64,000 nt of DNA, taken from NCBI RefSeq assembly GCF_056746865.1, contig NZ_CM163382.1, one strand, 5' to 3'. The translations under genes and the position numbers were made by a program. The notes under the pieces were generated by a model that ran no database searches, was not told the origin of the DNA, and was given only the letters and a program-made list of their open reading frames with translations. Position 1 is the stretch's first letter, and every line of letters starts with the position of its first letter. This document shows, piece after piece, positions 31,934 to 47,347 of this stretch.

Positions 31934-32839
31934 CTATATTTCCAGACATCTGTTATCACTTAACCCATTACTGGTCCGCTGCCGCAGATATTCCCGTGGC
32001 GAGCGATAACCCAGCGCACTATGCGGATGCCATTCGTTATAATGCTCGAACGCCTCTGCAAGGTTCTTTGCTGCCGTTAACCCGTCTGGTTTGGGCATGA
32101 TACTGATGTAGTCACGCTTTATCGTTTTCACGAAGCTCTCTGCTATTCCGTTACTCTCCGGACTCCGCACCGCCGTGTTCTTCGGTTCAAGTCCCAACAT
32201 CCGGGCGAACTGGCGTGTTTCATTAGCCCGGTAGCATGAACCATTATCCGTCAGCCACTCCACTGGAGACGACGGAAGATCGTTGCCGAAGCGGCGTTCC
32301 ACCGCTCCTGGCATGACGTCCTGTACTGTTTCACTGTTGAAGCCGCCGGTAGTGACCGCCCAGTGCAGTGCCTCACGATCACAGCAGTCCAGCGCGAACG
32401 TGACACGCAGTCTCTCTCCGTTATCACAGCAGAACTCGAACCCGTCAGAGCACCATCGCTGATTGCTTTCTTTCACGGCCACTCTGCCAGTATGTGCCCG
32501 TTTCGATGGCGGTACAGCGGTTTTTCGCTCAAGCAACAGCGCATTCTGGCGCATGATCCGGTAAACACGTTTGGCATTGATCGCAGGCATACCATCAAGT
32601 TCGGCCTGTCTGCGAAGCAGCGCCCATACCCGACGATAACCATACGTGGGCAGCTCTCCGATAACATGGTGTATACGGAGAAGCACATCCGTATCATCTG
32701 AGTGACGGCTGCGGCGACCATCTTTCCAGTCATCGGTTCGTCTGAGAATTACGTGCAACTGCGCACGCGACACCCGGAGACAACGGCTGACTAAGCTTAC
32801 TCCCCATCCCCGGGCAATAAGGGCGCGTGCGCTATCCAC
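31934..32839 (-). CDS. insD: IS2 OrfB (InsD)
   Basis: 301 aa [30 protein letters not shown]... Confidence 0.85.
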
Positions 32840-33207
32840 TTTTTTGCACGCCCGTATTCAACGGCTTCTTTAAGGAGTTCATTTTCCATCGTTTTTTTGC
32901 CGAGCAGGCGCTGGAGTTCTTTAATCTGCTTCATGGCAGCAGCAAGTTCAGAGGCAGGAACGACCTGCTCTCCTGCGGCCACAGCAGTAAGACTTCCCTC
33001 CTGGTATTGCTTGCGCCAGAGAAATAACTGGCTGGCTGCCACACCGTGTTGCCGGGCAACAAGGGAGACCGTCATTCCCGGTTCAAAACTCTGCTGAACA
33101 ATAGCGATCTTTTCCTGTGTAGTACGCCGTCTGCGTTTCTCCGGTCCTAAGACATCAATCATCTGCTCTCCAATGACTAGTCTAAAAACTAGTATTAAGA
33201 CTATCAC
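32797..33207 (-). CDS. insC: IS2 OrfA (InsC)
   Basis: 136 aa [47 protein letters not shown]... Confidence 0.85.
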
Positions 33208-34219: not shown

Positions 34220-34723
34220 TTATTGATAGTGTTTTATGTTCAGATAATGCCCGATGACTTTGTCATGCAGCTCCACCGATTTTGAGAACGACAGCGACTT
34301 CCGTCCCAGCCGTGCCAGGTGCTGCCTCAGATTCAGGTTATGCCGCTCAATTCGCTGCGTATATCGCTTGCTGATTACGTGCAGCTTTCCCTTCAGGCGG
34401 GATTCATACAGCGGCCAGCCATCCGTCATCCATATCACCACGTCAAAGGGTGACAGCAGGCTCATAAGACGCCCCAGCGTCGCCATAGTGCGTTCACCGA
34501 ATACGTGCGCAACAACCGTCTTCCGGAGACTGTCATACGCGTAAAACAGCCAGCGCTGGCGCGATTTAGCCCCGACATAGCCCCACTGTTCGTCCATTTC
34601 CTCGCAGACGATGACGTCACTGCCCGGCTGTATGCGCGAGGTTACCGACTGCGGCCTGAGTTTTTTAAGTGACGTAAAATCGTGTTGAGGCCAACGCCCA
34701 TAATGCGTGCACTGGCACGACAT
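34220..34723 (-). CDS. insB: IS1 InsB
   Basis: 167-aa ORF; expressed as an InsAB fusion by frameshifting. Confidence 0.85.
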
Positions 34724-34917
34724 CCGACGCCATTCATGGCCATATCAATGATTTTCTGGTGCGTACCGGGTTGAGAGGCGGTGTAAGTGAACTGTAGTTG
34801 CCATGTTTTACGGCAATGAGAGCAGAGATAGCGCTGATGTCCGGCAGTGCTTTTGCCGTTACGCACCACGCCTTCAGGAGCGGAGCAGGAAGGACATCTG
34901 ATGGAAATGGAAGCCAC
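34642..34917 (-). CDS. insA: IS1 InsA
   Basis: 91 aa [23 protein letters not shown]... Confidence 0.9.
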
Positions 34918-35180
34918 GCAAGCACCTTAAAATCACCATCATACACTAAATCAGTAAGTTGGCACCATTACCTGACCAAGCTTCCTCTATTGCGGCACCT
35001 GATTGCATCAATATCGAAAGTGATAAGATCCTCTCACTAGCAGGGCATGACAAGTGTAACTGCTGATTTGTTAGCCTGTTTTAAGTTTTTTAAGATCAAT
35101 TATTTCTCATTTTTTGACTTTATTGCTAGCCGTGAAAATGCAAAGCCTATAGGATACAAAAATTACAATTTGTAGGTTTT

Positions 35181-35687
35181 GTGAGTCATATGAAGGCAAC
35201 CAATATAGACCCTCAACTGCTTGAAAAAGCCACGAGTATCTTTGCTGAGTTGGGCTTACCTATTGAGCAGGCTATTAACGTCTTTTTAGCTAAATCCGTT
35301 CAAGCCAAAGGTTTTCCGTTTTCTGTTGCTCTTGAAAATGAAGTAGAGACACGGGAAGTTGCACAAACGCAACACAATATCAGCAATGCAGAGATAACCG
35401 AAGCTATCCAAGACTTGGTTGAACATGCTCTACCACTGAGTGAAATAGAAAACCTCACGCAGCTAACCTATTGTCGCAACATTTTTGGGTTGTCATTCCC
35501 CGTGCTCAAACTGGCTAAATCATCACGGCCAGAAGACATTCGCAGTGCAGCCAAAGATGCCAAAGAGCGAAACCGCTACTCCACCACTAAAGTGGCCCAG
35601 CGAGATGAAAAAACCTATGTTATTTGCACCCAATGGACCGACAGACATCGTTCTGCATTTTGCCGTTGGCAAGCCATCTTTAGCTAG
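35181..35687 (+). CDS. DinJ/RelB-like ribbon-helix-helix domain protein with uncharacterised C-terminal extension
   Basis: N-terminal about 45 aa (...IDPQLLEKATSIFAELGLPIEQAINVFLAKSVQAKGFPF) follows the DinJ pattern; remaining 120 aa unrecognised. Track start is GTG; an ATG lies at 35190. Confidence 0.5.
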   Translation: MSHMKATNIDPQLLEKATSIFAELGLPIEQAINVFLAKSVQAKGFPFSVALENEVETREVAQTQHNISNAEITEAIQDLVEHALPLSEIENLTQLTYCRNIFGLSFPVLKLAKSSRPEDIRSAAKDAKERNRYSTTKVAQRDEKTYVICTQWTDRHRSAFCRWQAIFS

Positions 35688-35753: not shown

Positions 35754-37733
35754 ATGAACTTACAAGACAAAGAACAAAGCGCCAAACTCTCCAGTGCTAT
35801 TTGGCGTATGGCAGATGATTTATGGGGTGATTTCAAACACACCGATTTTGCGCGGATTATCCTGCCATTTTTGCTACTGCGTCGTATTGAATGCGTGTTA
35901 GAACCCACCCGTGAGGAAGTTCGTAAGTTCTATCTGGCCGAAAAACAATCCGGCATAGACCTTGGTTTAGTGTTGCCAGAAATTGCGGGATTCGCCTTTT
36001 ACAACACCAGTGAATATAGCCTAGAAACCTTAGGCGCGTCAGACACCGGCGACAACCTAGAACACTACATCAGCCAGTTCAGCAAAAACGTTCGTACCAT
36101 CTTTGATGAGTTTAAATTTGGTCAAACCATAGAAGATCTGGAAAAAGCCAAGTTGCTGTATCGCATGGTAAACCATTTTGCCAACCTCGACTTGCATCCT
36201 GATGTAGTGTCTGACCGCGTATTATCAGATGCTTATGAAGAGCTGATTCTAAAGTTCGCCAGTTCGGTTAATGAAAAGGCCGGGGAATTTATGACCCCGC
36301 GTGATGCCGTGCGTCTTGCCACCAAACTGGTGCTGGCGGCGGATGAAGATATCTTTAGTGAAAAGGGTGTGATCCGCACCATCTATGACCCAACCTGTGG
36401 CACGGGCGGTTTCCTTTCCGATGCCATTAGCCAAATTGAAGAAATGGGCAGCAGCGCTAAAGTCGTGCCTTTTGGTCAAGAGCTCGACCCCGCGACCCAT
36501 GCCATGGCGCTGACCAATATGATGATCCGCGGTTTTGATGCCAATAACATCAAGCAAGGCAACACCTTATCAGACGATCAGTTACGTGCCGACAAGTTTC
36601 ACTACGGCCTTGCCAACCCGCCATTTGGCATTAAGTGGGAAAAAGCCAAGAAAGAAGTAGAACGTGAGCACAAACAGCTCAAATACGCCGGACGCTTTGG
36701 GCCAGGCCTGCCGAGTATTTCTGATGGTTCAATGCTGTTTTTACTGCACTTGGTATCAAAAATGGAAACGCCGGAAAATGGTGGTGGCCGAGTGGGTATA
36801 GTCCTTTCTGGCTCGCCACTGTTTAATGGCGATGCAGGCTCAGGCCCATCAGAAATCCGCCGTTGGCTGCTAGAACAAGACTTAGTCGAAGCGATTGTTG
36901 CCCTGCCAACCGATATGTTCTTCAACACCGGCATTGGCACCTACATCTGGATTTTGACTAACCATAAAGAGCCAAGACGCAAGAATCAGGTGCAACTGAT
37001 TAACTTGGCAGATATTTGGACTCCCATGCGTAAATCGCAAGGCGATAAGCGCAAGTACCTGAGTGATGAACAGATTGACGATATTGTCCGTGCGTACGAT
37101 GGCTTTGAAGCCAGTGACAACTGTAAGATCTTCCAGACTACTGATTTTGCCTACCGTAAAGTCACCATTCAGCGTCCACTGCGTGCCAAACTAGATATTA
37201 CCGCTGCGGGCATTGCTGCATTTGTGCAGCAAGATACGTTTAAAAAACTCAAACCAGAGCAACAAGCGGCATGGGTACAATACCTCACCGATAACCTTGG
37301 CCTTCAGCCTTATGAATGGGCACGTTTGGCGGTTAAGAAGAATAACAATAAGGGTGACTTTGGTAAGTGCTCAAAAGCACTGGCTACGGCCTTAACTGCG
37401 CACTTTGTAAAAATTGATCCGCAATTTGAGCCTGCACTGGATGAAAAAGGCCAAGTGATCGCCGACCCTAAACTCAAAGACACCGAAAGCATTCCTTTTG
37501 ACCGCGACGTTGAAGATTACTTCGCACAAGAGGTGCTGCCACATGTACCGGATGCCTTTATTGATCACTCAGTGCGTGATGAAAAAGACGGCGAAGTGGG
37601 CATTGTCGGTTATGAAATTAACTTTAACCGCTATTTCTACCAATACGTGCCACCACGCGAGTTGAGTGTGATTGATCGTGAGCTAAAAGCATGTGAAGCG
37701 CGCATTCAGGCTCTGCTGAATGAGGTGGCGTAA
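35754..37733 (+). CDS. hsdM: Type I restriction-modification methyltransferase subunit HsdM
   Basis: 659 aa; SAM-binding TCGTGGFL-type motif and catalytic NPPFG. Confidence 0.85.
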   Translation: MNLQDKEQSAKLSSAIWRMADDLWGDFKHTDFARIILPFLLLRRIECVLEPTREEVRKFYLAEKQSGIDLGLVLPEIAGFAFYNTSEYSLETLGASDTGDNLEHYISQFSKNVRTIFDEFKFGQTIEDLEKAKLLYRMVNHFANLDLHPDVVSDRVLSDAYEELILKFASSVNEKAGEFMTPRDAVRLATKLVLAADEDIFSEKGVIRTIYDPTCGTGGFLSDAISQIEEMGSSAKVVPFGQELDPATHAMALTNMMIRGFDANNIKQGNTLSDDQLRADKFHYGLANPPFGIKWEKAKKEVEREHKQLKYAGRFGPGLPSISDGSMLFLLHLVSKMETPENGGGRVGIVLSGSPLFNGDAGSGPSEIRRWLLEQDLVEAIVALPTDMFFNTGIGTYIWILTNHKEPRRKNQVQLINLADIWTPMRKSQGDKRKYLSDEQIDDIVRAYDGFEASDNCKIFQTTDFAYRKVTIQRPLRAKLDITAAGIAAFVQQDTFKKLKPEQQAAWVQYLTDNLGLQPYEWARLAVKKNNNKGDFGKCSKALATALTAHFVKIDPQFEPALDEKGQVIADPKLKDTESIPFDRDVEDYFAQEVLPHVPDAFIDHSVRDEKDGEVGIVGYEINFNRYFYQYVPPRELSVIDRELKACEARIQALLNEVA

Positions 37734-39019
37734 TGAATGCTGGCAACATAGTAGATGCTTTCGTATCTGACTCGAAATGGAACTCAGTACCAGCTAAACG
37801 TTTATTTACGAGTAGCAAAGAAATCAATCAAGGAATGAAAGAATCTAATCGTCTTGCACTAACAATGAAAGGTGTCATAAACCGCTCGTTAGACGATTTA
37901 CAAGGACTTCAATCTTCTGATTACTCTGTTTATCAGATTTTTGAAAAAGATGACTTAGTTTTTAAGCTCATAGATCTTGAAAATATAAAGACTAGCCGAG
38001 TGGGGATTGTGCATGAACGAGGAATAATGAGCCCTGCATACATCCGTGTTTCAGCGAGTTCAAATAGCATCTACCCAAGGTTCTATTACTGGTACTTTTT
38101 TGCTCTATACCTAACCAATATTTATAACAAACTGGGTGGAGGAGTTCGTCAGAACCTAACAGCTGGTGATCTTTTAGAAATACCTGTTCCACTGATTGAT
38201 ATTTCATTACAGAAGCAGGTTAGCACATTCCTTGATCGCGAAACCCAGCGCATCGACAGTCTGATCGAGGAAAAGCAGACCTTTATTAAGCTGCTCAAAG
38301 AAAAACGCCAAGCACTGATCAGCCATGTGGTCACAAAGGGGCTCTATCCCAATGTGGAGATGCAGGACTCTGGCATCGAGTGGATTGGGCAAGTGCCGAA
38401 GCATTGGGAAGTCAAAAAGATAAAGCATATTTGCTCCAACTTTATGTATGGAACCTCTCAAGACTGTAACCAGTCTGATGTTGGCTATCCTGTTCTCAGG
38501 ATACCAAACATCAAGAGTACCAATGTTGATTTTGAAGATCTCAAATATGCAAATATCAGTGATGTTGATGCTTTAACTTATCTTTTATCAAGAGGCGACA
38601 TTTTAGTCATCAGAACTAACGGTAACCCTAATCTGGTCGGCCAAAGCGCGCTTTTTGATTCAAATGGGCAGTATTTATTTGCGTCGTACCTAATAAAGTT
38701 AACACCAAAGCAAGGAGTGGATACTAGCTTCTTAGTGGAAGCGATGAACTCACTATCTGTTCGTCAAGCATTAACATTTCAGTCAAGAACATCGGTAGGT
38801 AACTACAACCTGAGCATTCCTTCACTAGCTAATACAAGTATTGCTATCCCACCAATTGATGAGCAAAAGACAATAACGAATTACTTGAGTGCAGCAACGA
38901 TAAACATTGATTTACTGATTCAAGAGACTGATAAATCGATTGATCTTCTAAAAGAACACCGCACATCGCTGATCAACGCGGCTGTCACAGGAAAAATAGA
39001 CGTCAGGGAGGCGGTGTAA
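37733..39019 (+). CDS. hsdS: Type I R-M specificity subunit HsdS
   Basis: 428 aa with two variable AT-rich target-recognition regions separated by a conserved coiled-coil segment; overlaps hsdM stop and hsdR start. Confidence 0.8.
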   Translation: MNAGNIVDAFVSDSKWNSVPAKRLFTSSKEINQGMKESNRLALTMKGVINRSLDDLQGLQSSDYSVYQIFEKDDLVFKLIDLENIKTSRVGIVHERGIMSPAYIRVSASSNSIYPRFYYWYFFALYLTNIYNKLGGGVRQNLTAGDLLEIPVPLIDISLQKQVSTFLDRETQRIDSLIEEKQTFIKLLKEKRQALISHVVTKGLYPNVEMQDSGIEWIGQVPKHWEVKKIKHICSNFMYGTSQDCNQSDVGYPVLRIPNIKSTNVDFEDLKYANISDVDALTYLLSRGDILVIRTNGNPNLVGQSALFDSNGQYLFASYLIKLTPKQGVDTSFLVEAMNSLSVRQALTFQSRTSVGNYNLSIPSLANTSIAIPPIDEQKTITNYLSAATINIDLLIQETDKSIDLLKEHRTSLINAAVTGKIDVREAV

Positions 39020-42000
39020 TGGCTGCACATCATGAAGTGCATTTTGAACAATATATTACCGAGCAGTTGGTGAACAATGGCTGGAAAGAAGGCCATTCCT
39101 GCCACTATGACCAGCAACGCGCCCTTTACCCGCAAGATGTCATGGATTGGGTAAAGGCCACCCAGCCAGATGCCTGGCACAAACTGAATAAACTGCATGG
39201 TGTGAATGCCGAGCAGGTGCTGTTGGAGCGTTTGGAAAAAGCCCTCTCTTCCCACAAAGCTGGCAGTAAAACAGGTGGCACCATTAATGTGCTGCGTAAA
39301 GGCTTTACCATTGCAGGTTGCGGCACGATTGCCATGGGCCAACGCAAACCCGAAGATGCGCGCAATGAAGAGCGTATAGCCCGTTATGAGCACAACATTT
39401 TGCGCGTGGTGCGCCAACTGAAATATTGCCCGACTCGCGAGTGGGAAATTGACTTGGTGTTCTTTATCAACGGTCTACCCGTTGCCACCGCCGAGCTAAA
39501 AACCGATTTTACCCAGTCGCTAGAATCGGCGATTGCGCAGTACAAAGAGGATCGTCTGCCCGTTGACCCAAAAACCAAGCGTAAAGAGCCGCTGTTAACC
39601 TTTAAACGCGGTGCAGTGGTACATTTTGCCATGTCTGATACAGAAATCGCCATGGCGACCAAACTGGCGGGAGAAAATACCTATTTTCTGCCCTTCAATA
39701 AAGGCCATGATGGTTCTACCTCTGATTTGCCCGTACACATCAACTTGCCGGGTGAAGATGGAGAGTATCCGGTCAGCTATTTTTGGCAAGAAATTGCCCA
39801 AAAAGATAATTGGCTACGCATTTTCTACAGCTTTGTGTATGTCGAAACCAAAGAGGTTGCCGATAGCAATGGCAAGGTTGAGCGTAAGGAAACACAGATT
39901 TTTCCGCGTTATCATCAGTTAGCCGCAGTCAACAAGATGATTGATGATGCCCGCCAGAACGGCGCAGGCATGCAGTATCTTTGTGAGCACAGCGCCGGTT
40001 CGGGAAAAACCTCTACCATAGCCTGGACGGCCCATGATTTGATTCGTTTACGCAGCACCGATGGTAAAGCGGTCTTTAAATCAGTGATCATTGTGACCGA
40101 CCGCACCGTGCTGGATTCGCAGTTGCAAGATGCGGTGCAACAGCTGGATCATCAATATGGGGTGATTAAGGTGATTGATCGCGAAAAGAGCAGCGAGTCG
40201 AAATCAAAACAGCTGACTGAAGCGCTATTGACTGGCACGCCGATCATTGTAGTGACGATTCAAACCTTCCCATATGCGTTAGAAGCGATTCTGACCAATC
40301 AATCTTTGGCACAAAGTAACTTTGCGGTGATCATCGATGAAGCACACACCTCGCAAACAGGCTCTACAGCCAAAGGGTTACGCGCAGCGCTTACTCTAAA
40401 CCTTAGCCCTCAAGAGTTGGAGCAAATGAGCATTGAGGACATTCTTACTAAGGTGCAAGAAGCGCGCGCCATGCCCAAGAACGTTTCGCACTTTGCTTTT
40501 ACGGCAACACCCAAGCACAGCACCAAGATGTTGTTTGGCCGCCCGAAAGACCCTAACCAACCAGTGTCAGATGACAATCTTCCTGAATCGTTCCACCTCT
40601 ACACCCAACGTCAGGCCATTGATGAGGGTTTTATTCTTGATGTGCTGGAGAATTACACCCACTACGATACAGCCTACAAAATTGGTGAGAACAATCTGGA
40701 TGAGAAGCGCGTAGACAGCAAACAAGCTCGCCGCGCGTTGGCGCGCTGGATGTCACTGCACCCAACCACGGTCAGCCAAAAAGTCGAATTTATTATTAAG
40801 CACTTCAAGGCCAATATCGCTCACCTACTGGAAGGTGAAGCCAAAGCCATGGTGGTCACATCGGGCAGGCCACAGGCGGTGAAATACAAGCTTGCTTTTG
40901 ATAAATACATTAAAAAGCATGGTATTGAAGGTATCCAAGCCTTGGTTGCCTTCTCGGGCAAAGTCCCCGGCAAAGATTTGGGTGATGAAGACAGCCAAGA
41001 CCCGCTAGAAATTGATTTCGATAAAGAGTACACCGAGTACAACTTAAACCCAGACACGCACGGGGCTGACCTGCGCCATGAGTTTGAGAAAACCGAATAT
41101 CGCGTCATGTTAGTCGCCAACAAGTTCCAAACGGGCTTTAATCAACCAAAACTGGTTGCCATGTATTTGGATAAGAAAATATCCGATGTAGAAGCGGTGC
41201 AAACGCTGTCTCGCCTAAACCGCACCTATCCAGGCAAAGACACAACCTTCGTGATTGATTTTGTTAACGATCCACAAACCATTCTCAATGCGTTCAAAAA
41301 GTACGACAAAGGCGCGCAGCTTAATGAAGTGCAAGATGTGAACGTCATCTATGACATCAAAGATATTTTGGATGAACAGAACATATACAACCATCAAGAT
41401 TTAGAGTTGTTTAAGCAAGCGCGTGGTAAATCGATTCTCGGCCAATCACCTGACAAAAAGTCACACGCGCACAAGAAACTGCTAGCTGCCACACAACGCC
41501 CTACCGATGTGTTCAACGTTAAGCTCAAAGAGCTGGTTGATGCTGCAAACCATTGGGATCAGCAATACAACAAAGCGCACCTTGCGGGTGATGAAAAAGC
41601 GGCGAACTACGCAGAATCTCAGCGCAGTGATTTCACCAAGCAGCGCGAAGCACTAATGCGTTTTAAGTCAGATTTAGCTCGATTTGTGAAGCACTATAGC
41701 TATATGAACCGCCCCGGGTTTCCTGGAGAGTGTTTTATCTGTGAACTCAGGCTGCCAGATCATCGTTTCCGATGGAAGCATAATAAGCTTTTTCTGCTTC
41801 TGCCGGAGGAGTATGGCCCAGCCTTCCCAGCAATCGTCGATTGTTATACCAGTCCACCCACGTTAGTGTGGCCAGTTCCACTTCTGCACGGTTTTTCCAG
41901 CTCTTACGGTGTATTACCTCCGCTTTGTAAAGACCATTGATGCTCTCAGCCATCGCGTTGTCATACGAGTCGCCTGTACTCCCTGTTGATGCCAGTAATC

Positions 42001-43568
42001 CGGCTTCTTTTAGTCGCTCCGTATAGGCCAGTGACACATACTGAGAGCCTTTATCGCTGTGATGGATGGTGCCAGACGGACGACGGGCCCACAACGCCTG
42101 CTCCAGCGCATCCAGCACGAATGTCGTTTCCATAGACGATGAGACCCGCCACCCCACGATGTATCCGGCAAACACATCAATGATAAACGCCACATAGACG
42201 AAGCCCTGCCATGTGCTGACGTAAGTAAAATCAGCCACCCACAGCTGGTCAGGTCGTTCTGCCACGAACTGACGGTTTACGCGGTCGCCTGCGGCAACGG
42301 CTTTCCGGCTGATGGTCGTACGGACCTTTTTACCCCGGAGAACACCGGCAAGTCCCATAACCGCCATGAGACGTGCCACTGTACATCTGGCCACCCTGAT
42401 TCCTTCCCGTAACAACTGACGCCAGACTTTACGCACACCGTACACCTGATGATTTTCATCGTATACGCGCTGTATCTCTCTCTTCAGCCAGTCGTCGTGC
42501 TGCGCACGGGCACTGCGTTTATCCGGATGATGTCGCTGTTGCTGACAATGGTAATACGTTGACGGGGCAATATGCAGTTCGCTGCATACCGGTCCGACCC
42601 CGTACTGCTCACGCAGCTTATCCAGCAGTGGCATCATTTTTTCCAGAGGCGGTCGAACTCCGCCTTCGCAAAATAAGCGGAAGCCTGGCGAAGGATATCG
42701 TTACTGCGGCGCAGTTCACGATTTTCACGTTCCAGCTCTTTCAGACGCTGACGTTCAGCGCTGGTGAGCCCACCATCACCGCCCCCGGTATCCCGCTCAT
42801 GCTGGCGAACCCAGACACGCAGAGTCTCCGGCGTACAGCCAATCTTTGGGGCAATGGAACAAATTGCCGCCCACTGTGAGTCATATTCATCCTGACTTTC
42901 CAGAACCATACGAATCGCCCGCTGACGGACTTCGGGGGAAAAACGAGTATTTTTAGTCATCCTGTTTACCTCTTTCTCAGGGAGTTTAGTCTCCAGGATT
43001 TCCGGGGCGGTTCAATATGGCGCAATTGATTGAGTTTGGTGATCCTGAACTGGAAAACTTTGCCGCGTTTGCTCATTTGCTATCACGTCGATTGAAAGGG
43101 GTAACACCAGAAAACATCGATCTCAGTGCACTGGTACTAGAAAAATTCAAAATCAAATACGACAAAGAGCCGCTTCCAGAAGCGTTTAATCAGGTACTTG
43201 AACCTATCCGCCCCAACTATAACGACCCTGCGGATCGTGAACAGGCATTTCTTGCCGATATCATTCGCCGCCTAAACGAACTGTTTGGCGATGTCGGCGA
43301 CGAACCCGGTCGCCGAAACTTTGCCAACGGTACTATTACGCGTGTCACCCAAAATCCAATTGTGGTTGAGCAGATAGAAAAGCACGACAAGTCGATTGCC
43401 CTCAAAGGCGACTTGCCGCAAGCGGTGAAGCAAGCCGTTGTGCAGGCTCTGCTGAAAGAAGGTGATATAGCCCGAACGCTACTCAAAGACCCACAAGTTA
43501 TGGCAAGTTATGTTGAGTTGATTTTTGACATGATGAAGCAAGGTGCAGAACAGGCGGCGGTGAAATAA
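39019..43568 (+). pseudogene. hsdR: Type I restriction enzyme R subunit HsdR, split by IS629 (insert 41705-43014)
   Basis: Helicase motifs (SAGSGKTS, DEAH-box-like IIDEAH); the frame is continuous across the insertion once IS629 and one ATA duplication are removed. Confidence 0.8.
41705..43014 (-). mobile_element. IS629, copy 1 (1310 bp), 3-bp target duplication ATA
   Basis: Ends TGAACCGCCCCGGGTTTCC... and ...GGTTCA; OrfA 42634-42960 and OrfB 41747-42637 match IS629 from memory. Confidence 0.9.
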
Positions 43569-44122
43569 TGAATACTGCGTTTCGGGTTTTACTTACGTTC
43601 AATGCAACATCACTACTAGTGATTATCTTTGCGGTACAAAAAGGGTACTCACTCGGATATTTCTTTGGTGGTTTCGCTTGCTTCGATTGGATAGCAGCAC
43701 TTCCGAACGCAGTATCATATTTACTCTATTTTCTTATCCCTGTTTTATCGACTGGATTGAGTATTTGGCTGAGTAAGTATTTGGGTAAAGACGATTTTAA
43801 GGCGGGTGAAGTAGCGAGTATTGAGCATGCCAATAACAGCTTCCTACCAAGTTATTTGGGTTACTTTTTCGTGGCGTTGAGCATTGGTAACTGGGAGACA
43901 TTGTGGTTTGTTTATGGCGTTTTGTTTGTTTTTACTCTCTTATCGCAAGCACTCTACTTTAACCCATTGTTTTTACTGTTTGGTTATGAGTTTTATAACA
44001 TTACAACCAAAAACGGAACGGCCATTTTCCTTATTAGCCGAGAGCGCTACAAGAAGCCAGATGACATCGAAATATCATTGGCTTATCGAATCAATAATTA
44101 CACATTTATCGAGCGAGGATAA
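43568..44122 (+). CDS. Hypothetical integral membrane protein (about 4 TM), first gene of candidate defence cassette
   Basis: 184 aa; hydrophobic segments near residues 5-23, 29-66 and 92-150; start overlaps hsdR stop (TAATG); AT-rich. Confidence 0.6.
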   Translation: MNTAFRVLLTFNATSLLVIIFAVQKGYSLGYFFGGFACFDWIAALPNAVSYLLYFLIPVLSTGLSIWLSKYLGKDDFKAGEVASIEHANNSFLPSYLGYFFVALSIGNWETLWFVYGVLFVFTLLSQALYFNPLFLLFGYEFYNITTKNGTAIFLISRERYKKPDDIEISLAYRINNYTFIERG

Positions 44123-44964
44123 TGATGGACCATGTACTGGCACATATAAAAACTAGAGCAAAAAAACGCATTTTCAAATTGGTTTCTGATCAATCTCTTT
44201 TTGATACCGTCACAATCGACTTAAATGCCTGTATTCCATACAATCCAGACCATAACCTTGACGAAGACTCATGGTTTAAAATTGAAGACTTTAGTCAAAA
44301 AGAGTTTTGTATTGAACTGCTAAAAAAAGACTATGATTCAAAAGACTACGATGACTTAACCAAAGATAACTTCGCCAAGATCGCCTACTTATTTGCAATT
44401 CAAGGTAATGATTTTTACTTTCAAAAAATCACTCCAAGCCTATTCGTAAAACGCAAAACGCTTGTTTTTGGTGAAGCCGCAGAAATTGAGAAGAGCCAAA
44501 CACGTTTAGTAATAAACGCCTTACCTGATGCAGTGTACTTCAAAGTGGCCGATACCTTGATATTCAAAAATCTGGCAACGATCTCGAGCATTTTTAAAGG
44601 TATCGATGAGTTGTACAAGGAAGCAACAAAAGAAGAAGTTGAGCAGTTTTTAGATGCACAGTTTATAGAGTTGGGTAATGACTACAACGTAGATAGCGTC
44701 TCAAAACCTAATAGAAAACGTATTGGCCTTGCTATGGCAACACTTGATGCGATGTCTGCTGACGATAAAGCTAACATGCTTGATTATATCGACGGTTACT
44801 GCGGTGAACAGAAGCTGAAATTCGATAAAGAAAATCAGAAGTTTGAAATATCTAATGACGATGAGTTGAAGTTACTGCTTTATGGCATTGAACAACGCTT
44901 CTATACGACCCCGTTTGGCAAAGAAAAAAGGCTCGCTAACTCTGTAACCGCTATGGATAAATAA
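44122..44964 (+). CDS. Hypothetical soluble acidic protein, second gene of candidate defence cassette
   Basis: 280 aa, no recognised catalytic motif; start overlaps upstream stop (TAATG); AT-rich. Confidence 0.6.
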   Translation: MMDHVLAHIKTRAKKRIFKLVSDQSLFDTVTIDLNACIPYNPDHNLDEDSWFKIEDFSQKEFCIELLKKDYDSKDYDDLTKDNFAKIAYLFAIQGNDFYFQKITPSLFVKRKTLVFGEAAEIEKSQTRLVINALPDAVYFKVADTLIFKNLATISSIFKGIDELYKEATKEEVEQFLDAQFIELGNDYNVDSVSKPNRKRIGLAMATLDAMSADDKANMLDYIDGYCGEQKLKFDKENQKFEISNDDELKLLLYGIEQRFYTTPFGKEKRLANSVTAMDK

Positions 44965-44984: not shown

Positions 44985-47347
44985 ATGAAGGTTGATTCAA
45001 TGGCCGATAACATCCCACAAGCTCCTCAAGGTGAGTTTGTTCTTTTCACCAGTGCTGATGGTCAAACCCGCGTTGAGTGTCGTTTTGAGTCTGACACCTT
45101 GTGGCTTTCTCAGGCTGCAATGGCAGAGCTTTATCAAGTTAGCTCTCAAGCAATCACCCAACACGTAAAAGCTGTCTATTCTGAAGAAGAGCTTGAGCAA
45201 ATTTCAACTTGTAAGGATTACTTACAAGTTCAACTGGAAGGTGGCAGAGAAGTAAAGCGAAGCATTCGTCACTACAGTCTTCCGGTTATTCTTGCAGTAG
45301 GATACCGAGTTCGCTCAACACGTGGCACCCAGTTCCGCCAATGGGCAACCAGAATGTTGCAAGTGAACCGCCCCGGGTTTCCTGGAGAGTGTTTTATCTG
45401 TGAACTCAGGCTGCCAGATCATCGTTTCCGATGGAAGCATAATAAGCTTTTTCTGCTTCTGCCGGAGGAGTATGGCCCAGCCTTCCCAGCAATCGTCGAT
45501 TGTTATACCAGTCCACCCACGTTAGTGTGGCCAGTTCCACTTCTGCACGGTTTTTCCAGCTCTTACGGTGTATTACCTCCGCTTTGTAAAGACCATTGAT
45601 GCTCTCAGCCATCGCGTTGTCATACGAGTCGCCTGTACTCCCTGTTGATGCCAGTAATCCGGCTTCTTTTAGTCGCTCCGTATAGGCCAGTGACACATAC
45701 TGAGAGCCTTTATCGCTGTGATGGATGGTGCCAGACGGACGACGGGCCCACAACGCCTGCTCCAGCGCATCCAGCACGAATGTCGTTTCCATAGACGATG
45801 AGACCCGCCACCCCACGATGTATCCGGCAAACACATCAATGATAAACGCCACATAGACGAAGCCCTGCCATGTGCTGACGTAAGTAAAATCAGCCACCCA
45901 CAGCTGGTCAGGTCGTTCTGCCACGAACTGACGGTTTACGCGGTCGCCTGCGGCAACGGCTTTCCGGCTGATGGTCGTACGGACCTTTTTACCCCGGAGA
46001 ACACCGGCAAGTCCCATAACCGCCATGAGACGTGCCACTGTACATCTGGCCACCCTGATTCCTTCCCGTAACAACTGACGCCAGACTTTACGCACACCGT
46101 ACACCTGATGATTTTCATCGTATACGCGCTGTATCTCTCTCTTCAGCCAGTCGTCGTGCTGCGCACGGGCACTGCGTTTATCCGGATGATGTCGCTGTTG
46201 CTGACAATGGTAATACGTTGACGGGGCAATATGCAGTTCGCTGCATACCGGTCCGACCCCGTACTGCTCACGCAGCTTATCCAGCAGTGGCATCATTTTT
46301 TCCAGAGGCGGTCGAACTCCGCCTTCGCAAAATAAGCGGAAGCCTGGCGAAGGATATCGTTACTGCGGCGCAGTTCACGATTTTCACGTTCCAGCTCTTT
46401 CAGACGCTGACGTTCAGCGCTGGTGAGCCCACCATCACCGCCCCCGGTATCCCGCTCATGCTGGCGAACCCAGACACGCAGAGTCTCCGGCGTACAGCCA
46501 ATCTTTGGGGCAATGGAACAAATTGCCGCCCACTGTGAGTCATATTCATCCTGACTTTCCAGAACCATACGAATCGCCCGCTGACGGACTTCGGGGGAAA
46601 AACGAGTATTTTTAGTCATCCTGTTTACCTCTTTCTCAGGGAGTTTAGTCTCCAGGATTTCCGGGGCGGTTCAAAGAATACCTAATCAAAGGATTCGTCA
46701 TGGATGACGAGCGCCTGAAAAATCCGCCCATTGGCCATTCTGCTGTGCCAGATTACTTTGATGAAATGCTGGAACGCATTCGTGATATCCGAGCTAGTGA
46801 GCGTCGCGTTTATCTGCGAGTCAAAGAAATCTTTACCATGGCTGCTGATTACGAGCCATCTAACCAAGAGACCAACCGCTTCTTCCAAACCATTCAGAAT
46901 AAGCTGCATTATGCTTGTACGCATATGACGGCTGCTGAGCTTATCGCCAGCCGTGTGGATGCCAGTAAGCCGGATATGGGCTTAACCAGCTATAAAGGCG
47001 ATGAAGTGCGCAAGACAGACGTTACTGTTGCCAAGAACTATTTGCGTGAAGACGAAATCAAAGAGCTTAATCGCATCGTCAATATGTGGCTCGACTTTGC
47101 TGAAGACCAAGCACTGCGTCGCAAGCAGGTATTTTTACAGGACTGGGCCGATAAGCTTGACCAGTTCTTGAGTTTTAACGATAGAGATGTATTAAACGGT
47201 GCAGGAAAAATCTCCAAGAAAGACGCTGATGACAAAGCGAAATTGGAGTTTGACCGCTTTGCCCAGCAGCGCCGTCGTTTAAAAGAAGCCGAAGGCGCAC
47301 GGGCCAATATCGCAGCCCTCAAGGCCATACTAAAAAAAGATAAATAG
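44985..47347 (+). pseudogene. rhuM: RhuM-family protein, split by IS629 (insert 45364-46673)
   Basis: N-terminal part ...YSLPVILAVGYRVRSTRGTQFRQWATRMLQ; frame continues after the IS once one AAG duplication is removed. Confidence 0.65.
45364..46673 (-). mobile_element. IS629, copy 2 (1310 bp), 3-bp target duplication AAG
   Basis: ORF products identical to copy 1; same orientation. Confidence 0.9.

Follow-up and report, generated by a model that had tools for sequence, protein, structure and literature searches.

The small gene immediately upstream of hsdM in the window (the whole 64-kb stretch of DNA that was analysed) is most likely not a stray antitoxin gene but encodes a DNA-binding repressor that heads many unrelated anti-phage operons. 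Its product, referred to here as the regulator, joins an N-terminal ribbon-helix-helix (RHH) domain of the DinJ/RelB type to a globular C-terminal domain (CTD), and a conserved operator-like element precedes its start codon. We consider it probable that the regulator is an autoregulated transcriptional repressor of the defence operon at whose 5' end it sits, which in this window is hsdM-hsdS-hsdR-kwaA-kwaB. The whole case was built from sequence comparison and structure prediction.

The mechanically called ORF extends from a GTG at 35181 to 35687 on the + strand, and the original prediction of a DinJ/RelB-like RHH gene ahead of hsdM had adopted that GTG as its start. The gene was confirmed, but its start was not: all homologues in our alignment share the ATG at 35190, and RefSeq places the start of the identical E. 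coli gene, WP_000648433.1, at the same ATG. The homologue alignment and the RefSeq annotation therefore support a protein of 165 aa, and by these comparisons ORF 35190..35687 is a real gene (Table 1).

Table 1. Coordinates of the regulator, its putative promoter and operator, and the downstream operon in the window.
Feature	Position	Strand	Details
Putative -35 hexamer TAGCCG	35127..35132	+	family pattern T-n-GCC-r; 17 nt upstream of the -10-like box
Putative -10 hexamer TAGGAT	35150..35155	+	last T is the first base of the candidate operator
Candidate operator, four palindromic half-sites	35155..35183	.	TACAA aaat TACAA t TTGTA ggtt TTGTG
Regulator gene	35190..35687	+	165 aa plus stop; WP_000648433.1, annotated 'RelB/DinJ family antitoxin'
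DinJ/RelB-type RHH (DNA-binding, dimerisation), aa 1-47	35190..35330	+	
Variable disordered linker, aa 48-61	35331..35372	+	pLDDT <50 at residues 48-60
CTD, conserved globular domain, aa 62-165	35373..35684	+	K-D-x3-5-N-R-Y and C-T-Q-W-x-D-R-H-R-x-A-F-x-R-W motifs
hsdM, first structural gene of the operon	35754..37733	+	Pfam HsdM_N, N6_Mtase
hsdS	37733..39019	+	Pfam Methylase_S
hsdR	39019..43568	+	Pfam HSDR_N, ResIII, SWI2_SNF2; interrupted by a 1311-bp IS3-family insertion, 41705-43015
kwaA and kwaB (Kiwa)	43568..44964	+	PADLOC KwaA 9.3e-16, KwaB 7.1e-14; overlap the hsdR stop

The N-terminal ~50 aa of the regulator share both the RHH fold and the (G/A)(F/L)PF motif with the DinJ/RelB antitoxins (Pfam PF04221, TIGR02384). 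The Pfam RelB match, spanning aa 5-67, scored 24.2 bits, slightly over the gathering score; TIGR02384 RelB_DinJ matched with an E value of 2.2e-10, which is under its trusted cut-off; and the best sequence relative in the PDB was E. coli DinJ (aa 5-65, E 0.011). These similarities bear out the DinJ pattern that had been read in the N-terminal ~45 aa, and they place this part of the protein among the RelB/DinJ-type RHH domains. An AlphaFold2 model built with 32 homologues was compatible with such a fold, with an unstructured strand region at the N-terminus followed by helices at residues 8-20 and 25-40, and it predicted an ordered C-terminal part after a disordered linker. The linker is the least conserved stretch of the homologue alignment (A1) and contains indels. 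Like the DinJ/RelB antitoxins, the regulator is likely a dimeric, operator-binding autorepressor.

Public annotation treats the regulator as a type II antitoxin, and the alignment of its N-terminal 65 aa with DinJ, together with the database name RelB/DinJ antitoxin, would fit an orphan: the relic of a DinJ-YafQ or RelBE pair whose toxin has been lost and which lies beside a restriction-modification (R-M) operon by chance. Toxin genes were sought at three levels. No ORF of the RelE/YafQ/ParE superfamily lies within 500 nt on either strand, none of the seven small ORFs around or inside the gene matched a toxin family in Pfam, and no cognate toxin gene was seen in the ~45 homologous loci examined, so the absence of a RelE/YafQ-like toxin gene noted in the original prediction holds well beyond this window. 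Unlike in DinJ/RelB, moreover, the unstructured C-terminus that wraps around the toxin is replaced, here by the disordered linker and a self-folding globular domain of 104 aa that is conserved above the RHH domain, and the genes downstream of the regulator are defence operons. The full two-domain architecture is kept from Escherichia to Aeromonas, across several gammaproteobacterial families, and always before defence genes, which is unlike a decaying relic. An antitoxin with a lost toxin, one of the options first offered for this gene, is already largely refuted, and we find it barely credible.

When modelled alone from 52 diverse sequences, the CTD reached a pLDDT of 96.1 and a pTM of 0.87, with a predicted order of three helices, a strand, a helix, a beta-hairpin and a long terminal helix. 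It is the best-conserved part of the family, above the RHH domain, and both of its motifs (Table 1) are nearly invariant, the K-D...N-R-Y motif continuing with S-T. W149 is invariant even in remote CTD relatives, with R129, Y143 and W160 almost as constant; the conserved residues K122, D123, N128, R129, Y130, Q148, W149, R152-R154 and W160 look like a binding site. The CTD family had no match in Pfam, and none in PADLOC or NCBIfam when the full protein was used; the domain is a sequence relative of no solved structure in the PDB and had no Foldseek match among predicted viral structures. The search of the C-terminal part that had been proposed for this gene thus returned a domain of no recognised family. 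Searches of IMG/VR for carriage by phages or satellites, with the DinJ-type or the Phd-type alignment as query, yielded no relatives, and little was gained from wider word-indexed searches that used the CTD profile or a CopG-type member as query. The label 'antiphage_MADS1' was considered as a name for the CTD family and discarded, its matches falling in the HTH part of other proteins.

We then asked how the gene is placed in other genomes. The exact locus occurs in 76 of 5426 complete E. coli genomes, always on the chromosome, and the gene for a type I R-M M-subunit (hsdM) is annotated directly downstream in the 20 E. coli records listed. The tRNA-Leu island of E. coli S30 shows the intact arrangement: an integrase, a phosphoethanolamine transferase, an outer membrane protein, IS1 and the regulator are followed by hsdMSR, two hypothetical genes (Kiwa), rhuM and mobI. 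Full-length homologues with 51-99% identity fell into 53 clusters and were found in Vibrio, Photobacterium, Shewanella, Parashewanella, Aeromonas, Pectobacterium, Dickeya and Lonsdalea. We examined ~45 loci from Escherichia, Vibrio, Photobacterium, Shewanella, Aeromonas, Lonsdalea, Pectobacterium and metagenomes, many of which are near-identical copies, leaving about nine independent contexts. In all ~45 the regulator gene comes first, on the same strand and directly before a defence operon, and its stop codon often abuts or overlaps the start of the next gene.

At least eight different systems lie downstream. The type I R-M plus Kiwa arrangement of the window recurs in Vibrio and in metagenomes with hsdS alleles that are 38-100% identical, and allelic variants of 38-65% identity follow this regulator elsewhere. 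In Shewanella the regulator precedes another type I R-M family, whose hsdM is 45% identical to that of the window; in Vibrio, Photobacterium, Lonsdalea and Shewanella it precedes a system composed of an SNF2 helicase, DUF4391, an N6/N4 MTase and Res, with an embedded HEC-01 pair or Abi_2 gene. HEC-03 plus an RNA ligase was found in Aeromonas, PDC-S06 followed by a Septu-like PtuA/PDC-M01 pair in Parashewanella, PDC-S41, which is an SLFN-like helicase, in one metagenome, and a type II-like MTase in one metagenome. Operons of quite different kinds follow regulators 83-90% identical to the E. coli protein. The original prediction had raised the possibility of a transcriptional controller of the R-M operon, and its core survives: the gene is always first and co-directional, a palindromic operator overlaps the predicted -10 and +1 positions, and the genes are apparently co-transcribed. 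As worded, however, it was too narrow, since homologues of 83-90% identity with the same operator head HEC-03, PDC-S06 plus Septu-like, and PDC-S41 systems. The two findings that had been named as evidence against it did not materialise, in that no overlooked toxin came to light and homologues adjoin type I R-M operons in several loci, besides other systems.

An apparent exception was met in Pectobacterium, where rhuM alone follows the regulator. We do not count this context as a counter-example. At the locus in question (L004 7974-9056, Pectobacterium brasiliense) hsdM is reduced to its first 36 nt, which are joined to ~100 nt from the 3' end of hsdR, followed by rhuM; by this comparison, it is a clean internal deletion of hsdMSR-kwaAB, which left the regulator, with an intact operator, driving the remnant.

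The SNF2-DUF4391 system recurs as a unit of five to seven genes (L005-L009, L010, L015 and L045, from Vibrio, Lonsdalea and Shewanella). It consists of an SNF2 helicase (PADLOC 'C3a139 HKD+Snf2'), DUF4391, an N6/N4 MTase and a ResIII/RE_endonuc nuclease, with varied small defence pairs (HEC-01, or Abi_2) inserted between the genes. For DUF4391 there is no PADLOC model and hardly any literature.

The range of partners bears on whether the regulator acts on genes or on proteins. It might be a promiscuous antidote whose CTD binds the downstream effectors, in the manner of a type II antitoxin or of the hyper-promiscuous PanA domain, with the RHH supplying conditional autoregulation. Such a role would suit a gene placed upstream of potentially self-toxic systems, and the CTD is indeed fused to three DNA-binding folds of the antitoxin type (RelB RHH, Phd/YefM and CopG/VapB-like), as toxin-neutralising modules are. 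The would-be partners, however, are structurally unrelated (HsdMSR, SNF2 helicases, ABC-type ATPases, an SLFN-like helicase and a solitary MTase), and, with regulators of 83-90% identity facing different ones, a single surface is unlikely to neutralise them all. An antidote role would also be senseless for the CTD copies found within nucleases and McrB-like proteins. We regard neutralisation at the protein level as quite improbable, and a repressor acting at the promoter as the better account.

The predicted site of that action lies directly upstream of the regulator start codon, where an inverted repeat with 13-nt arms is resolved by comparison of diverged loci into four half-sites (Table 1). 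The candidate operator so defined ends 6 nt ahead of the ATG. A search of the 64-kb window for TACAA-n3/4-TACAA-n1-10-TTGTA gave a single match, where 0.01 would be expected. In its strict form the pattern was present in 18 of 30 loci searched, always and only at the equivalent upstream position; the remaining DinJ-type loci have slightly degenerate versions, the element was recognised by eye in L010, L027 and the 13 metagenome loci too, and the four-half-site arrangement, with slightly variable spacing, precedes every DinJ-type member. The motif is absent before the Phd-type (L021) and CopG-type (L023/L024) CTD proteins, as would be expected if the DinJ-type RHH reads it.

A TAnnAT sequence abuts the first TACAA at the same place in most DinJ-type loci. 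When six upstream regions that have otherwise diverged were aligned, T.GCC was invariant and its spacing to TAnnAT fixed. We take the two hexamers to be a weak sigma-70 promoter whose start site would fall within the operator, near 35162; TAGCCG agrees with the -35 consensus at 3 of 6 positions, and a consensus promoter scanner called no promoter on the + strand here. A conserved repeat operator overlapping the regulator's own predicted promoter was found in silico for all DinJ-type loci. Between the regulator and hsdM, whose start lies 66 nt beyond the regulator stop, no terminator-like site was found.

The palindrome was also considered as an mRNA hairpin, which is unlikely at -7.2 kcal/mol (z -1.3), no better than shuffled sequences. 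An RNA element in the leader or intergenic regions was likewise set aside, Rfam returning one sub-threshold match to a plant miRNA.

Nucleotide homology between the window and two other loci (L026 and L027) is confined to ~35100-35684, that is, to the promoter, the operator and the regulator; the promoter, leader and regulator thus constitute a portable head module. Upstream neighbours vary freely while the regulator stays with its downstream operon (for example, L005 compared with L006). Upstream of the module in the window, IS1 (insA/insB, minus strand; 34220-34917) ends ~200 nt from the predicted promoter, and IS2-like orfA/orfB (31934-33207) lie further away. E. coli S30 has IS1 at the same place, so the native upstream context of the module has been lost in E. 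coli.

The sharp edges of this homology, one shortly before the promoter and the other at the stop codon, could alternatively point to a function in the mobile element itself, with the regulator as an excisionase-like protein or recombination-directionality factor and the TACAA repeats as the site at which defence cassettes are swapped. Other CTD proteins do have excisionase-type HTH_17 domains, and integrases, Tn3 or satellite-like genes are found in the islands that house the loci. No recombinase, however, is a constant neighbour; the repeats, placed between the -10-like box and the ribosome-binding region, have the classic layout of an autoregulated RHH operator; and it is the upstream neighbours that vary, with the regulator remaining attached to the downstream operon. 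A role in recombination is, in our judgement, very improbable.

For the repressor we propose the following mechanism. Dimers of the N-terminal DinJ-type RHH domain would bind the four TACAA/TTGTA half-sites at 35155-35183, which run from the last base of the -10-like hexamer over the probable transcription start and into the 5' leader. The bound regulator would block RNA polymerase and thereby keep the whole operon, with hsdM presumably on the same transcript, at a low, self-limited level. Recombination would have placed this head module of promoter, operator and regulator before many unrelated anti-phage systems. The CTD, carried on the flexible linker, would be the input module, recognising a nucleic acid or sensing a ligand, and would change how fully the operator is occupied when the cell is infected or its DNA is under stress. 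Control of type I R-M families is classically post-translational, so they do not strictly need a transcriptional controller.

Several known regulators offer precedents. RptR of EPEC (PDB 9R2Z), a 79-aa four-helix repressor encoded by the first gene of a type I R-M/DarTG2 island, represses its own promoter and that of the island through short repeats that overlap the -10 (PMC12255303). The layout is the one predicted for the regulator, the first gene of a type I R-M-based island; we detected neither homology to the 79-aa four-helix fold nor a TAGCTA operator, and the regulator does not belong to the RptR family. BrxR/CapW (wHTH-WYL-WCX), CapH-CapP and CapK-CapS likewise head many defence systems and combine DNA binding with a sensor domain, repression being lifted by a nucleic-acid or DNA-damage cue, and they supply our working model. 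Unlike these, the regulator has an RHH rather than a wHTH domain, a CTD rather than a WYL domain, and no gene for a partner protease or kinase beside it; no HTH, WYL or BrxR match was found in it with Pfam, and the wHTH-WYL-WCX architecture is absent. In the Vibrio loci, a BrxR gene is present as a separate neighbour.

The C proteins of type II R-M systems are also small DNA-binding proteins encoded upstream of, and co-transcribed with, R-M genes, with palindromic operators at their own promoters. They are, however, single-domain HTH (Xre-like) activator/repressors that precede a type II endonuclease gene, whereas the regulator is an RHH plus CTD protein found before a type I methylase and before systems other than R-M. 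SeqA-like proteins, built from an RHH-like N-domain, a linker and a C-domain that binds hemimethylated GATC, were a further candidate family, and the CTD is not homologous to the SeqA DNA-binding domain. The best reading by analogy is that the regulator is a functional counterpart of the C proteins, BrxR/CapW and RptR, and a homologue of none.

A search of 1.84 billion representative proteins revealed the CTD to be a mobile domain. It sits behind RelB-type RHH, CopG-like RHH, Phd/YefM, excisionase-type HTH and MerR-type domains, and also behind HNH nuclease domains. The new fusion suggested in the original prediction is therefore apt as a description: an RHH joined to a mobile, uncharacterised domain that is found with other DNA-binding and nuclease domains as well. 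One HNH fusion is encoded by an unannotated gene on the IncC plasmid pKAZ2 (KR827391.1; L003 7770-8483), a 237-aa ORF with an HNH-like N-terminus and a CTD, the ORF being 28% identical to the regulator over aa 11-165. By this architecture it may be a small modification-dependent nuclease. The ORF is followed on the plasmid by a 223-aa gene of unknown function and a PIN_12 gene.

A 935-aa McrB-like AAA_5 protein (P0081; L022 7001-11157, GCA_002632265.1) has two CTD copies in tandem at its N-terminus. In McrB-type enzymes the N-terminal position is that of DNA target recognition, from which we infer that the CTD recognises a nucleic-acid feature. The two copies occupy the place held by DUF3578 in EcoKMcrB and by the B3-like domain in LlaJI.R1, and, as in McrB-family systems, the gene adjoins one for an McrC/LlaJI.R2-like protein, in this case a downstream RE_LlaJI gene, with no DNA methyltransferase nearby. 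The two genes resemble a type IV restriction system in which the targeting domain is new. Between the CTD and the known McrB N-domains there is no similarity of sequence or fold. Taken by themselves, these domain architectures suggest that the CTD is a nucleic-acid-recognition or sensor module. Purely by analogy with the ssDNA-sensing WYL domain of CapW/BrxR, it might serve as the input domain of the regulator.

A module of this kind could instead make the regulator a structural component of defence, in which the CTD reads a feature of invading DNA, such as a base modification or a DNA end, and flags or recruits that DNA for the neighbouring system, the RHH serving mainly for dimerisation. The position of the CTD in small HNH nucleases, and at the target-recognition site of an McrB-like GTPase lacking an adjacent DNA methyltransferase, agrees with this, as do conserved polar and aromatic CTD residues that resemble a binding site. 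A generic adaptor for mechanistically unrelated systems is nevertheless hard to picture, and the conserved operator before the regulator's own gene points to promoter binding; we consider the structural role unlikely. It is compatible with the repressor model, as the same recognition event could relieve repression. A joint reading, which we think rather unlikely, is that the CTD is a new nucleic-acid reader, maybe one that is specific for base modification or some other mark of foreign DNA, which is put to two uses. In one it would direct McrB-type GTPases and HNH nucleases to their targets, in type IV-like restriction; in the other it would be a sensor fused to RHH, Phd or HTH domains, forming portable repressors that switch on the downstream defence when foreign DNA appears.

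How anti-phage systems are silenced and activated is poorly understood, and few families of regulators are known (C-proteins, BrxR/CapW, CapH-CapP, CapK-CapS and RptR). We found no published description of the regulator in the literature on DinJ with hsdM, on the RefSeq accession or on DUF4391 with restriction. It would define a new family of leader regulators of defence operons with a new accessory domain, unrelated to those already described. If the model is correct, it also provides a compact and testable promoter-operator-repressor cassette with a defined operator, which moves between Vibrio, Shewanella and Enterobacterales, drives many defence operons, and could be used as a marker for new systems downstream. 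The ligand of the CTD, a domain common to McrB-like and HNH restriction proteins, could reveal what such systems sense. A systematic mis-annotation as 'type II TA antitoxin', which inflates toxin-antitoxin counts, would be corrected. Should the CTD sense foreign DNA, the regulator would be the first master switch built on an RHH to sense infection, with type I R-M, Kiwa and at least six further systems under its control.

Within the window, the distal kwaA and kwaB genes encode a 184-aa membrane protein and a 280-aa DUF4868-like protein, respectively, and form one operon-like unit with the type I R-M genes. Two Vibrio loci, L025 and L030, keep this linkage of type I R-M and Kiwa at 96% identity. 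The interruption of hsdR (Table 1) was seen by comparison with the intact locus of E. coli S30 (L001) and by self-BLAST, and restriction is therefore probably inactive in the source strain, whatever the regulator does. The interrupting element, presumably IS629-like by its size and ORFs, is one of three copies of a 1311-bp IS3-family element (41705-43015, 45364-46674 and 50679-51988), two of them identical and one 99.8% identical. Besides the copy that splits hsdR, another splits rhuM; E. coli S30 retains the intact arrangement.

Some of the more remote CTD proteins lie in other surroundings. Those of the Phd and HTH types precede genes for a HAD hydrolase, an RNase T-like protein and an ADP-ribosylglycohydrolase, contexts that PADLOC does not call as defence. 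A HAD-family hydrolase gene comes next after both the HTH_17-CTD (L032/L033) and the Phd-CTD (L021) genes, a pairing unrecognised by PADLOC, and at L032 a Cas_NE0113 gene precedes the HTH_17-CTD gene. Finally, 4 of the 47 CTD-containing proteins in a broader alignment (A2) matched the NCBIfam family NF047386, 'T4SS effector SepA family', with a best E value of 1.6e-6. Brucella SepA (BAB1_1492, 130 aa) has no known domain and is encoded in a horizontally acquired region (PMC4602199). By this match, it may carry the CTD.
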